Source: a virus (Duplodnaviria; Heunggongvirae; Uroviricota; Caudoviricetes). Taken from it: 64,000 nucleotides of DNA. The notes under the pieces are model-generated. The model saw only the letters and a program-made list of their open reading frames with translations, was not told the origin of the DNA and ran no database searches. The stretch spans positions 22,818 through 86,817 of the IMG/VR virus record IMGVR_UViG_3300013126_000015; one strand, given 5' to 3'. Positions 6,333 to 56,880 of this stretch are shown piece after piece (positions within the stretch are counted from its first letter, which is position 1; each line of letters begins with the position of its first letter). The position numbers and the translations under genes are program-made.

Positions 6333-6437
6333 AATAACTCCATGGTGTCAATAACTATTTATCTTTCCAAGGTAGGCTGTCTATAATTTATAAACGGTAC
6401 TAGTTCACAATTTTTTACATAATGATGAAAATAATTA

Positions 6438-22325: not shown

Positions 22326-23020
22326 TATTTTTCAAACCTTGTGGTAATTGGGTCAATTAATACTGCTTGCCCATTTTTTCTTCTCATGATATTATTAAAG
22401 TGCATATCAGGTTCAAATTGATTATTTCTGAATAATGGCTCTAATATTCTTAATGCTTGGGAAAATTGTTTATTTGTAGTTGAATGTCGAATTTTATTTC
22501 TGGTATTATCATCAAAAAATGCTTTCGAAAATTTAACATGGGCTGGGAATTTTCCACTAGGATCAGTCGAGTTGACAATATCCATTATTCCTAGATTATT
22601 ACACAATAATTCTACACCATTATTTGGATAGTCAAATAATCGTTCCATTACAATTAATAATTGATATTTTGCCTTTGATTGTTCTGGTTCCAAAAAGAAA
22701 TCATGTTGTTGTTCAAACCATTCCATATCATCATATGAAAATTTACTTATATCATATAATTTGAATTTAAGGATTTTTGGAAAGAATTGGTTTTCTGGAT
22801 GATTATGGCATACTCTTAAAAATTGATATGCTGGATCTGATGGACCACTTATTGCAACAAATTTAAGGATGATATTCGGGTTATTTTGAACAGCATATGC
22901 TATAGCTTGAATTCCATTTCCAAGATATGATAATTGTGGTTTATTAATTACACCAGATAATGGTTTTTTTGATGTGGGTATTTCTATTTTCTTTTCTAAG
23001 ATGAGTTCATGAATTTTCAT
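22325..23020 (-). CDS. kinase-like paralog with CTS-like N-terminus (MKIHELILE); degenerate catalytic motif
   Basis: C-terminus ...NGQAVLIDP paralogous to 23024 gene. Confidence 0.4.
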   Translation of the reverse strand: MKIHELILEKKIEIPTSKKPLSGVINKPQLSYLGNGIQAIAYAVQNNPNIILKFVAISGPSDPAYQFLRVCHNHPENQFFPKILKFKLYDISKFSYDDMEWFEQQHDFFLEPEQSKAKYQLLIVMERLFDYPNNGVELLCNNLGIMDIVNSTDPSGKFPAHVKFSKAFFDDNTRNKIRHSTTNKQFSQALRILEPLFRNNQFEPDMHFNNIMRRKNGQAVLIDPITTRFEK

Positions 23021-54791: not shown

Positions 54792-54970
54792 CTTAAAATA
54801 AAGTAAGTGTAATCTCGCTGGTTATCAAATTGTATCACATCTTTTAGAATTTTGCAATGGAATTCTTTTTCGAATTCTTTAGTAGATGGTTCGGTGCCAT
54901 GTGTATTTTCATACCATTCATAGGCACTGAACACTTCATTACTTCTGAATAGTAACTCATGTTTTTTCAT
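54782..54970 (-). CDS. family II small protein (...DYTYFILRWC)
   Basis: C-terminal motif. Confidence 0.45.
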   Translation of the reverse strand: MKKHELLFRSNEVFSAYEWYENTHGTEPSTKEFEKEFHCKILKDVIQFDNQRDYTYFILRWC

Positions 54971-55266
54971 TATTCACCAAATTTTAACACAAATAATGTT
55001 CTATCCTGTTCTTTTTTAAAGTAAAAACGAAAATATCCATCCTCATCAATGCCATGATAGAATCTATCTTTAAATGATTCTTCGCACCATAAGATTGATT
55101 CTACCAATTGATCATGTGAGTCATGCATACTTGTAAAATTTGATCTTACGTAATAAATGAATGCTGTTTCGTGAGTGTTATCTAGTTGGCCAACTGATTT
55201 CACTATTACCGGAGTCCAGTCATATCTATTTCTCATTGAAAAAATCGATGCTGATGGGATTGACAT
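54970..55266 (-). CDS. family II small protein (...DRTLFVLKFGE); track ORF trimmed to internal ATG 55266
   Basis: AT-rich low-complexity N-terminal extension in track ORF is implausible. Confidence 0.4.
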   Translation of the reverse strand: MSIPSASIFSMRNRYDWTPVIVKSVGQLDNTHETAFIYYVRSNFTSMHDSHDQLVESILWCEESFKDRFYHGIDEDGYFRFYFKKEQDRTLFVLKFGE

Positions 55267-55330
55267 AGGTTGTACACCCACGATGTCATTGGCAATTGAT
55301 TGTGGTATTATCTTTCTTAATAATGGTATA

Positions 55331-55516
55331 TTAATCTCTGTCACGGTGCTCATGATGGTGATGTCGGTTATGATGCTGATTATGATGGTATTGGTATTGT
55401 GGATAATACCTTGGGTAATATACAGGTTGAACTGGGTAATAATAGCTGTCGTATCCACGGTAATTGTGGGCACATCCAACTAAAAATAATAACGATAATA
55501 CTAATAATTTATTCAT
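55331..55516 (-). CDS. His/Tyr/Pro-rich lipoprotein (61 aa; lipobox LVGC)
   Basis: MNKLLVLSLLFLVGCA then YYYPVQPVYYPRYYP...HHNRHHHHEH. Confidence 0.5.
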   Translation of the reverse strand: MNKLLVLSLLFLVGCAHNYRGYDSYYYPVQPVYYPRYYPQYQYHHNQHHNRHHHHEHRDRD

Positions 55517-56459
55517 AAATTGTAACACAGTTTTTTCCATTGTTTTTGGCTTTATACAAAGCAATATCAGATCGTTTATAAGTATCGATCCATGATGAAT
55601 CGGTGTATTTATCACACATTGCCGCGCCTATACTTATAGTAATTGGTTGTTCTAACTTTAACATAGGTTGGCTATTCTGTACTATTACTCTAATTTTTTC
55701 ACACAATGATGGTAATTTGTGAGGTTTAGTATCACTGCAGATGATGACGAATTCTTCTCCACCAAATCTGCAAACTACATCCGTAATTCTTACGGCATTT
55801 TTGATAACATTAGCGACATGTTTTAATACTATATCACCTACATCATGCCCAAAAGTATCATTAATTATTTTAAAATCATCTAAATCAATGCTTATGATAG
55901 AGAATGGTATTGATGATCTATATGAGTTATTCCATAACCGTACCAATTTGTCTTCTGCATAACGTCTATTATATAACCCAGTAAGTACATCTGTTATTAA
56001 TTGGTGATATAAATTGTTAGCATGCTCTTCCAAATATACATTATGTTTAGACAAATTATCATTTTCTAATTTGATTGAATATATCTGATTAACAATATAC
56101 ATGGCATTTATTAATCTACCATGAAGTTCAGTAGTGTTTATTGGTTTTTTTATAAAATCATTTGCACCAGCTTTGAATGCTAATTGTAATACGGACATAT
56201 CTGTTTCGACTGTCATCATAATTATATAATACCATTTATGATGTTGTCTAAGTATTTTACATAATTCAATACCATCGATTGAATTTAAATGACAGTCGGC
56301 AATTATTACATCGGGGTTATGTAATGGGATATTTAATATGGCAGATTCTATTGAGTGTTCACAATATACATTAAACTGCATTGATGACAAATAAGAACTC
56401 AATATAATAAGATTGATTTCATCATCATCAATCAATAATATATTAAATCCTCTATTCAT
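55509..56459 (-). CDS. response-regulator receiver + GGDEF diguanylate cyclase (GGEEF active site)
   Basis: N-terminal REC (LLIDDDE...D), C-terminal RFGGEEF. Confidence 0.7.
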   Translation of the reverse strand: MNRGFNILLIDDDEINLIILSSYLSSMQFNVYCEHSIESAILNIPLHNPDVIIADCHLNSIDGIELCKILRQHHKWYYIIMMTVETDMSVLQLAFKAGANDFIKKPINTTELHGRLINAMYIVNQIYSIKLENDNLSKHNVYLEEHANNLYHQLITDVLTGLYNRRYAEDKLVRLWNNSYRSSIPFSIISIDLDDFKIINDTFGHDVGDIVLKHVANVIKNAVRITDVVCRFGGEEFVIICSDTKPHKLPSLCEKIRVIVQNSQPMLKLEQPITISIGAAMCDKYTDSSWIDTYKRSDIALYKAKNNGKNCVTIYE

Positions 56460-56467
56460 GGATCACT

Positions 56468-56740
56468 TTATTTTTTGTTAGGGGTGAATTTAGTGAATTT
56501 ACCTTTATCACCTCTAATAGACGGTCCTATTAGGTTTTTACCTTGTGATCTTTGCGTTGCATTTATATTGCATCCGTTTTTAAATGACTGACTACTACCA
56601 TTACATTGGCTTGCATTTTTGTTATGCTTCCTAGCCCAATACCATCCAGCACGATGTCCGGCACAGTTTTTTGTGCACTGGCTTCCATGGAATGTCAATT
56701 CATTGATGATTTCATAAACTTTCATAAATTTATTTATCAT
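56468..56740 (-). CDS. Cys-rich small protein (90 aa)
   Basis: ORF; late-promoter-like TATAAATG upstream. Confidence 0.4.
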   Translation of the reverse strand: MINKFMKVYEIINELTFHGSQCTKNCAGHRAGWYWARKHNKNASQCNGSSQSFKNGCNINATQRSQGKNLIGPSIRGDKGKFTKFTPNKK

Positions 56741-56772
56741 TTATAAATATAATATAGTCATGGAGAATTACT

Positions 56773-56880
56773 ATGCTTGCTAATATGAGTACGATGAAAT
56801 TCTTTTTCCTTATTTCAGCATTATTATCAATACCATTAGTTATGTATGCTGTTGTTATATATTGGTGTTTTTATTAGATG
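56773..56880 (+). CDS. small hydrophobic peptide (35 aa) on + strand
   Basis: GGAGAA SD 7 nt before ATG 56773. Confidence 0.3.

Follow-up and report, generated by a model that had tools for sequence, protein, structure and literature searches.

Cyclic di-GMP (c-di-GMP) controls whether bacteria are motile or sessile, the surface structures that they bear, and, in certain species, progression through the cell cycle, and phages tamper with the c-di-GMP network indirectly, via YfiN- and PilZ-binding peptides. Among bacterial response regulators with a GGDEF domain, three are the closest described relatives of the protein reported here. WspR of Pseudomonas aeruginosa (PA3702; PDB 3bre and 3i5a) joins a single receiver (Rec) domain through a long α5 stalk to a GGDEF domain and is the output of the Wsp chemosensory operon, where it is phosphorylated by the CheA-like WspE. 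DgcR of Leptospira biflexa (6zxb, 6zxc, and 6zxm) is a small prototypic Rec-GGDEF protein of ∼300 amino acids, and it is activated when phosphorylation shifts the register of its coiled-coil linker (Teixeira et al., PMC8041772). PleD of Caulobacter crescentus (1w25, 2v0n, and 2wb4) has two receivers (Rec-Rec′-GGDEF, ∼455 amino acids). Here, we describe a member of this class that is encoded by a virus of the Caudoviricetes, in a stretch of 64,000 nucleotides (positions 22,818 to 86,817 of IMG/VR record IMGVR_UViG_3300013126_000015; referred to as the window). Judged by its sequence and its structure model, the 316-amino-acid protein is with high confidence a structurally intact Rec-GGDEF protein, and we consider it likely that it is an active cyclase used in infection. 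By its sequence it is a canonical member of a well-understood class; its novelty lies in being stably kept by a clade of jumbo phages, in which it is an orphan response regulator. The features of the gene are the following.

55509-56459, minus strand: gene of the 316-amino-acid Rec-GGDEF cyclase, stop codon included (open reading frame [ORF], Pfam, AlphaFold, and Foldseek)
56136-56447, minus strand: Rec domain, amino acids 5 to 108, a canonical (βα)5 fold (Pfam and model strands, E6-10 through E101-104)
56295-56297, minus strand: codon of the predicted phospho-acceptor Asp55, in DVIIAD (translation; aligns to PDIILLD of the first PleD receiver)
55992-56135, minus strand: extended α5/coiled-coil linker, amino acids 109 to 156, up to the DxLT hinge (model helix and heptads)
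55512-55991, minus strand: GGDEF catalytic domain, amino acids 157 to 316 (Pfam GGDEF and TIGR00254)
55779-55790, minus strand: I-site motif RxxD, R224-I-T-D227 (translation; aligns to RAID of PleD)
55749-55763, minus strand: A-site motif GGEEF, amino acids 233 to 237 (translation; invariant in 60 aligned homologs)

Pfam assigns Response_reg to residues 7 to 115 (E = 3.7e-24; 85.5 bits against a cut-off of 30.2) and GGDEF to residues 156 to 310 (E = 9.6e-44; 149.4 bits against a cut-off of 23.8), and TIGR00254, the NCBIfam model of the GGDEF domain, gives 157.2 bits against a cut-off of 37.4. An earlier note, made from the letters of the DNA, had described a Rec-GGDEF diguanylate cyclase between two small proteins, and the ORF list contains all three frames on the minus strand where the note had placed them. 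The strings that it quoted are likewise all found, namely, IDDDE, DVIIAD with the phospho-acceptor Asp, and RITDVVCRFGGEEF in the cyclase and the LVGC lipobox, the Tyr/Pro tract, and the His run in the lipoprotein. With these domain matches and with the A-site, the I-site, and the receiver residues all intact, the protein is a bona fide Rec-GGDEF protein.

Five further proteins of 316 to 323 amino acids show 47 to 50% identity to the cyclase, and over all the phage orthologs identities are 42 to 50%. The receiver contains D11 and D12 of the acidic pocket, the acceptor D55, T83, and K105, which correspond to D12, D13, D57, T87, and K109 of CheY; D55 is aligned with the acceptor of PleD, presumably D53 in PleD numbering. 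An alignment with PleD places the metal ligand at D194, the guanine ligands at N200 and D209, and the phosphate ligands at K305 and K309, which we take to be the equivalents of PleD D327, N335, D344, K442, and R446, respectively. These catalytic and ligand residues are invariant over the six phage orthologs except at position 309, where the window protein has Lys and its five orthologs have Arg, and they are invariant or nearly so over 60 homologs. The I-site RxxD, a feature common among feedback-inhibited cyclases but not essential to the class, lies exactly five residues (VVCRF) ahead of GGEEF, and both R224 and D227 are invariant throughout the phage clade. The earlier note had taken a degenerate inhibitory site as the mark of a receptor-only domain. 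This does not hold, as a receptor-only GGDEF domain has a degenerate A-site and an intact I-site; in the phage protein both are intact, and the intact A-site rules out a degenerate, receptor-only GGDEF domain.

The same residues bear on the product. Some Rec-GGDEF enzymes, e.g., GacA of Geobacter, are cyclic GMP-AMP (cGAMP) synthases, and such Hypr GGDEF domains carry Ser in place of Asp at the position equivalent to PleD D344. A product other than c-di-GMP, either 3′3′-cGAMP or a nucleotide for DNA or surface modification, would be in line with the presence of PDB 6d9m among the sequence matches to the cyclase and with the GGDEF gene that Bacillus phage SP-15 carries in a sugar/glycosyltransferase cluster. 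The guanine-specificity residue is Asp209, not Ser, in all six orthologs, on which ground a Hypr-type cGAMP synthase was rejected, and no sugar or DNA modification genes adjoin the cyclase; we regard another product as very unlikely.

A further possibility is that the protein is a sink or decoy, with Rec drawing off the phosphoryl groups of a two-component or chemosensory pathway of the host or with the I-site sponging cyclic dinucleotides as an antidefense measure. No partner gene lies near this orphan receiver, the I-site is intact, and phage counterdefenses that deplete nucleotide second messengers are among the subjects of PMC12657218. Neither a sink nor a sponge, however, needs the strict conservation of GGEEF and of the metal and substrate ligands that is seen at ∼50% overall identity, and the cyclase locus has no match to defense or antidefense families, so that such a role seems improbable.

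The AlphaFold model of the cyclase, built on 60 homologs, has a mean predicted local distance difference test (pLDDT) score of 94.4. It contains a (βα)5 receiver with five strand/helix pairs at pLDDT >90, and the fifth receiver helix runs on as a single 47-residue helix (residues 109 to 155) into the GGDEF domain. A Foldseek search of the PDB returned WspR (3bre; 2.8e-28), DgcR (6zxb), and PleD as full-length matches, and the closest PDB relatives by sequence are PleD (4.5e-42), DgcR (7.7e-39), and WspR (2e-33).

The linker between the KP and DxLT motifs of Rec-GGDEF proteins comes in discrete lengths 7 residues apart, DgcR belonging to group 1 and WspR to group 4, and “group 0” proteins have (S/N)PLT instead of DxLT (PMC8041772). 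In the phage cyclase, the hinge is D157-V-L-T, with D, L, and T invariant in 60 homologs, and the KP-to-DxLT distance is 52 in all six clade members. Its linker is longer by 21 residues (alignment gaps of 7 and 14), i.e., three heptads, than that of DgcR and longer by 14 than that of PleD, and it shows no net length difference from that of WspR. The heptad “a” positions are hydrophobic (I122, I129, L136, L143, and L150), with the third from last being polar in some orthologs, and the last repeat fits the pattern a-x-x-d-e-x-x, with Q153/L154 as the d/e pair and “e” at −3 from D157. As the linker follows the heptad length rule and ends in a DxLT hinge, its geometry is that of the WspR-length class of register-switch cyclases, and by analogy the linker is compatible with the register-shift activation described for DgcR.

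Taken one by one, the three bacterial proteins resemble the phage cyclase in different respects. WspR is the best Foldseek match (∼320 aligned columns, about 30% identity) and shares with it the architecture of a single Rec, a long α5 stalk, and GGDEF, as well as the KP-to-DxLT length, the GGEEF motif, and the RxxD I-site; in contrast to WspR, the phage protein is a virus-encoded orphan with no Wsp-like or other kinase gene nearby. DgcR has a similarly small, prototypic Rec-GGDEF layout, with cyclase residues 6 to 312 aligning to positions 4 to 293 of the 295 positions of the NCBIfam DgcR model, and has the DxLT hinge and the heptad-patterned linker in common with it. The score against the DgcR equivalog NF047654 is 168 bits, with a cut-off of 500, so that the phage protein is not an ortholog of DgcR. 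All catalytic and I-site residues align with those of PleD, whose family (NF007135) is the best NCBIfam match at 218 bits, which lies below the equivalog cut-off of 474; PleD differs in having two receivers, whereas the phage cyclase has one.

The gene is encoded by a phage, as the earlier note had it, since the genes around it form a T4-type replication and recombination set. Its neighbors comprise a DnaB/gp41-type helicase, a Toprim primase, a clamp-loader-like AAA protein, and a Gp23-related fragment, and a RecA/UvsX-like gene lies directly outside the window. The label “lytic T4-like” fits only loosely. The cultured phages closest to this one, still distant relatives, are PA5oct, a jumbo phage of Pseudomonas, and Atu_ph07, a jumbo phage of Agrobacterium, whose helicases show 45 to 50% identity to that of the window. 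No near-identical DNA relative of the 2.2-kb region was found among GenBank phages, and a tRNA scan detected no tRNA genes in the window. The phage is probably from fresh water, the sole environmental evidence being the sample of a cyclase-less relative (L009), which is Ga0133913 (3300010885), a co-assembly from northern Canadian lakes.

Bacteria are rich in GGDEF genes, and several of the “phage” records that the cyclase matches are unverified or contaminated, as would be expected if the gene were a recent nonfunctional passenger or a misassembled bacterial fragment. Several results contradict this. The identical cyclase is present on two independent assemblies, a Logan contig of 75.6 kb and a Joint Genome Institute (JGI) contig of 102 kb, and GC content (∼32% in the window) and strand organization are uniform across the region. 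The cyclase gene comes after the DnaB-type helicase gene, and syntenic orthologs lie downstream of the helicase at L002/L003, L004/L005, and L007/L008 and on a 49.6-kb JGI contig, i.e., in at least four other phage lineages. The best bacterial matches, with PleD-family proteins of Alphaproteobacteria prominent, are 34 to 38% identical, and the protein search returned no bacterial homolog above 38% identity. Among the matches listed by a metagenome scan, there were only bacterial-type homologs of at most 37% identity, and clade members were not among them. The passenger or misassembly explanation is thus effectively refuted by synteny and conservation, and we give it almost no weight. Because its position is kept in at least four other phage lineages and no close bacterial donor exists among the matches, we regard the cyclase gene as a maintained viral gene and not as a recent passenger or an assembly artifact; on this comparative evidence, it is a clade-specific accessory gene of an uncultivated jumbo phage with T4-type replication genes.

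GGDEF genes as such have been annotated in phages before, in Bordetella Vojvodinavirus LK3 and Pseudomonas Yuavirus (PMC8471281). Other examples are gp150 of SP-15, a GGDEF-only protein in a sugar modification cluster, and a gene of phage G. The annotated phage GGDEF proteins discussed are GGDEF only or have other N-terminal parts, unlike the Rec-GGDEF protein of the window, and belong mostly to temperate phages or to a sugar modification cluster. Several PHROG families match either the GGDEF or the Rec part of the cyclase, e.g., phrog_5594, and none matches both. A tblastn search of GenBank phages (50,697 records) matched 135 records, with no verified record among the 50,697 covering at least 80% of the Rec-GGDEF protein. 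Pseudomonas phages Y1 (OQ572403.1, locus L013) and Y11 (OQ572412.1) do reach at least 80% coverage but are unannotated, Y1 being flagged UNVERIFIED and without features; we suspect that these matches are host DNA with a WspR-like gene and set them aside. A scan of IMG/VR with the full-length clade alignment gave no match, and when the GGDEF part alone was used, nine unrelated GGDEF loci were retrieved, all of them (9/9) lacking a Rec domain. In the literature searched, no characterized phage-encoded cyclase was found, the one apparent instance being a YfiN-binding peptide.

In two lineages, L004/L005 and L007, the spacer before the cyclase gene carries a σ70-like promoter (L004 2371-2399 and L007 1448-1476; TTTACT/TTTGCA, 17 nucleotides, TGCTATAAT), which is the only match with a TG-extended −10 element in each of the two regions. 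This suggests early transcription by the host polymerase in the L004 and L007 phages. The octamer GATAAATA also occurs in these spacers, at L004 2421-2428 and L007 1496-1503, 5 to 6 nucleotides before the cyclase ATG. It is not enriched in the window (9 occurrences versus 10.8 expected), and six of the seven minus-strand copies, at 6356, 16339, 29788, 49871, 56731, and 60364, lie 5 to 27 nucleotides upstream of gene starts, including that of the small gene upstream of the cyclase. The octamer could be a phage-specific promoter, possibly of a late type giving near-leaderless mRNAs; alternatively, it could be an AT-rich translation initiation element in genes without a Shine-Dalgarno sequence.

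In the mechanism that we propose, the cyclase gene, which lies in the replication region and has a promoter of its own in two relatives, would probably be expressed early by the host RNA polymerase, and its product would dimerize by way of its Rec domains and stalk. Once Asp55 is phosphorylated, with a host histidine kinase or acetyl phosphate as the donor, the register of the coiled coil would shift, upon which two GTP-loaded GGDEF domains would meet and make c-di-GMP, with the intact RxxD I-site limiting output through product inhibition. The rise in c-di-GMP would act via the host's own effectors, the likeliest outcomes being a stop in motility, changed surface structures or exopolysaccharide, and more matrix, and the phage might benefit by an infected cell held among susceptible neighbors or by less superinfection or adsorption loss. 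These physiological effects are proposed because of general c-di-GMP biology and the precedent of lytic PB1-like Pseudomonas phages, whose YIP peptides raise host c-di-GMP early, with less motility and more biofilm (PMC8085984). The YIPs work through the host cyclase YfiN, which these short peptides activate, whereas here the phage would bring its own cyclase, and there is no sequence relationship between the two. With a cyclase of this kind, the phage can probably rewrite the sessile/motile signaling of its host. We infer the enzymatic activity, the phosphodonor, the timing of expression, and the physiological consequence, and we hold any specific downstream effect, or control by a host kinase, with much lower confidence than the cyclase activity itself.

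Several observations weigh against this proposal. The cyclase scores far under the equivalog cut-offs of DgcR and PleD, and the mechanism is transferred from them by analogy, not by orthology. Among the 52 large and 71 small ORFs of the window and in ∼9 kb beyond it, there is no histidine kinase (HisKA and HATPase_c) or Hpt gene, and the same 123 ORFs and flanking DNA (∼73 kb in total) contain no PilZ, EAL, or HD-GYP domain. In the window itself, σ70-like matches are not above chance in the promoter scan, and the spacer before the cyclase, at 56460-56467, is collapsed to 8 nucleotides, with loss of the cyclase's own promoter. Finally, in one of the six orthologs (P0006), the acceptor Asp is replaced by Asn, with all catalytic residues kept.

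The substitution in P0006 indicates that phosphorylation is not universally required, and, because no kinase or Hpt gene was found in ∼73 kb, the phosphodonor, if any, must be a host kinase or acetyl phosphate. The search for partner kinases that the earlier note had proposed therefore came back empty over this stretch. Both observations also favor a cyclase that is active but independent of phosphorylation, in which Rec would be a constitutive dimerization scaffold, or would respond to acetyl phosphate only, and output would be set by expression and I-site feedback. DgcR is a constitutive dimer (PMC8041772), and phosphorylation-independent regulation of WspR is, by its title, the subject of PMC2270323. 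On the other hand, the full D-D-D-T-K receiver set is kept in the window protein and four of the orthologs (5/6), and within the clade Rec is nearly as conserved as GGDEF (mean identities of 54% versus 61%), which speaks for selection on the phospho-switch in most lineages. We consider phosphorylation-independent activity possible but on balance doubtful.

The two small genes that adjoin the cyclase gene are the following.

55331-55516, minus strand: gene of a 61-amino-acid predicted lipoprotein, within a longer ORF open to 55615
56468-56725, minus strand: gene of an 85-amino-acid small protein, its start set by ortholog alignment, in an ORF open to 56740 (90 amino acids)

The 61-amino-acid product begins with a signal peptide, MNKLLVLSLLFLVGC, in which a rule scan finds a basic n-region (MNK), a hydrophobic stretch (LLVLSLLF), and a lipobox, LVGC, that fits [LVI][ASTVI][GAS]C, so that it is predicted to be lipidated. 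The mature lipoprotein would have 46 amino acids, 55% of them Tyr, His, Pro, or Gly, and ends in HHHHEHRDRD. The gene caller picked an earlier in-frame ATG at 55540, giving 69 amino acids, and the mature protein is the same with either start. In the earlier note, the lipoprotein ATG was placed 3 nucleotides after the cyclase stop codon; in fact, the ATG (55516-55514) precedes the stop codon (55511-55509), and the two genes overlap by 8 nucleotides, ATGAATAA, an overlap that is identical at the L004 locus.

The lipoprotein has no match in Pfam, PHROGs, NCBIfam, or PADLOC, and its sole homolog among 5.8 billion database proteins is the L004 ortholog (60% identity; E = 9e-21). In L002, a longer lipoprotein of like composition, ending in HHRHHDRD, is encoded one gene further downstream of the cyclase, next to genes for 71- and 136-amino-acid proteins; the lipoboxes are LTGC in L004 and LSGC in L002. 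A compositionally similar lipoprotein thus lies at most one gene from the cyclase in all three lineages with readable downstream DNA, and no such ORF is present in the two cyclase-less loci. The supposed link of the lipoprotein to the cyclase gains some support from this co-occurrence, which is suggestive at three versus two loci, whereas the protein itself is an orphan. It may accompany the cyclase as an accessory protein that acts at the envelope. An o-spanin (Rz1-like) was also considered for the lipoprotein and rejected, as there is no i-spanin or lysis context, its flanks being the cyclase and the Gp23-related fragment; domain scans found no endolysin or holin domains near it.

One could further imagine that the virus uses the cyclase and the lipoprotein together to plug into a phosphorelay of its host. 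The exported lipoprotein would trigger or mimic an envelope signal, activating a host sensor kinase as the host proteins NlpE, RcsF, or YfiB do, and the kinase would phosphorylate the phage regulator, giving a timed burst of c-di-GMP that would shut down motility or receptors or remodel the envelope to the benefit of the phage. We think this improbable; if true, it would be the first case of a virulent-type phage that adds a response regulator of its own to two-component signaling of the host.

Directly downstream of the lipoprotein gene lies the gene of a 127-amino-acid protein (54970-55353, minus strand; L004 3535-3921), which contains the Gp23-related fragment. Its N-terminal part (LLRKIIPQSIANDIVGVQPMSIPSASIFSMR) matches a conserved segment at the N terminus of the family of the T4 major capsid protein gp23 (Pfam Gp23, 7e-13, profile positions 3 to 61; phrog_138), and its C-terminal half is unrelated to gp23; the protein is conserved in L004 and on the 49.6-kb contig. 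The matched segment is presumably the “Gol” region of gp23, through which gp23 binds EF-Tu and which the Lit protease senses, and the stand-alone segment could be a decoy or an assembly factor.

The upstream gene had been described as encoding a 90-amino-acid Cys-rich protein. The ORF is there, but the conserved start at 56725 gives 85 amino acids, and there are only four Cys. The first ATG of the 90-codon frame is TAG in the orthologous loci, and the conserved product begins with MKVYEII. The Cys spacing is C-x3-C-x20-C-x9-C, with the first two Cys (C-x3-C) invariant in the family and the last two lost together in two homologs; as these two are lost as a pair, they may form a disulfide or share a metal site. 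The protein has no match in Pfam, PHROGs, NCBIfam, or PADLOC, and its AlphaFold model (pLDDT 64.5) is too low in confidence for fold searching. It is more conserved than the cyclase (55 to 84% identity among 13 homologs), with a core motif of ELTFHGSxCTxxCxGHRAGWYWA. A profile search with this core (homologs P0136 to P0284) opened onto a large unnamed superfamily of 1,638 cluster representatives at E ≤ 1e-3, some members of which carry a C-terminal fusion to Pol-beta nucleotidyltransferase or L5_gp82-like domains.

In the window, spacing is tight on both sides of the cyclase gene, with a gap of 8 nucleotides to the 85-amino-acid gene and the 8-nucleotide overlap with the lipoprotein gene, and a terminator scan of the window found no terminator between the three genes. 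Together with the similar lipoprotein near the cyclase in three lineages and its absence from two cyclase-less relatives, this spacing would fit a single functional module made up of all three genes. Such a module seems unlikely to us. The genes do not stand out as a discrete three-gene operon, since they sit in a long array of tightly packed genes that all run on the minus strand and overlapping starts are usual along the whole array. In the cyclase-less sister phages L009 and L011, the Cys-containing protein is present after the helicase, with 68 to 70% identity; it belongs to a broad superfamily with many other contexts, and in the cyclase-bearing relatives, promoter-bearing spacers (75 to 160 nucleotides between the two genes) split its gene from that of the cyclase. 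On the other side of the cyclase, the 49.6-kb contig has a 155-amino-acid gene and not a small lipoprotein gene, and the comparison comprises three versus two loci only. The idea of the Cys-rich protein as a partner of the cyclase was therefore abandoned, and we conclude from these comparisons that the 85-amino-acid protein is probably a conserved positional neighbor unrelated to cyclase function.

Some other features of the region were observed in passing. On the opposite strand, an ORF at 56773-56877 (plus strand) encodes a 34-amino-acid hydrophobic, single-transmembrane-like peptide, MLANMSTMKFFFLISALLSIPLVMYAVVIYWCFY. GGAG lies 7 nucleotides before its ATG, and an exact T4-late-promoter-like box, TATAAATA, lies 24 nucleotides upstream, at 56742-56749 (plus strand); this box is 3-fold underrepresented in the window (6 occurrences versus 18 expected). 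The ORF and its Shine-Dalgarno sequence are conserved at L004 1854-1976 (minus strand) and L007 1004-1120 (minus strand)/L008, and it may be a late-expressed membrane peptide gene, antisense within the early/replication array. In the cyclase-less relatives (L009 1068-4334 and L011 2283-5830), the coding region of the DnaB-type helicase is split by an ORF of ∼500 amino acids with Mom-like/DUF7487 domains, and the N- and C-terminal parts of the helicase match on either side of it; the gene may be split without an intein or have received a mobile insertion. Lastly, among ORFs of at least 120 amino acids, the window contains an NAD+ salvage set (NAMPT, an NMNAT-like cytidylyltransferase, and a NUDIX protein), along with an RlaP-type nucleotidyltransferase, an Eco57I-type methylase, an SPFH/Band-7 protein, and a MORN-repeat protein, which would fit counterdefense against NAD+-depleting systems.

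The traits that c-di-GMP governs all bear on phage adsorption, superinfection, and spread. With its small size, its confidently predicted fold, and its obvious sites (D55, GGEEF, and RxxD), the cyclase offers a clean test case. If the protein is active, it shows that viruses can be equipped with a second-messenger generator that answers to phosphorylation by the host, and the cyclase would provide a compact natural part for manipulating c-di-GMP.

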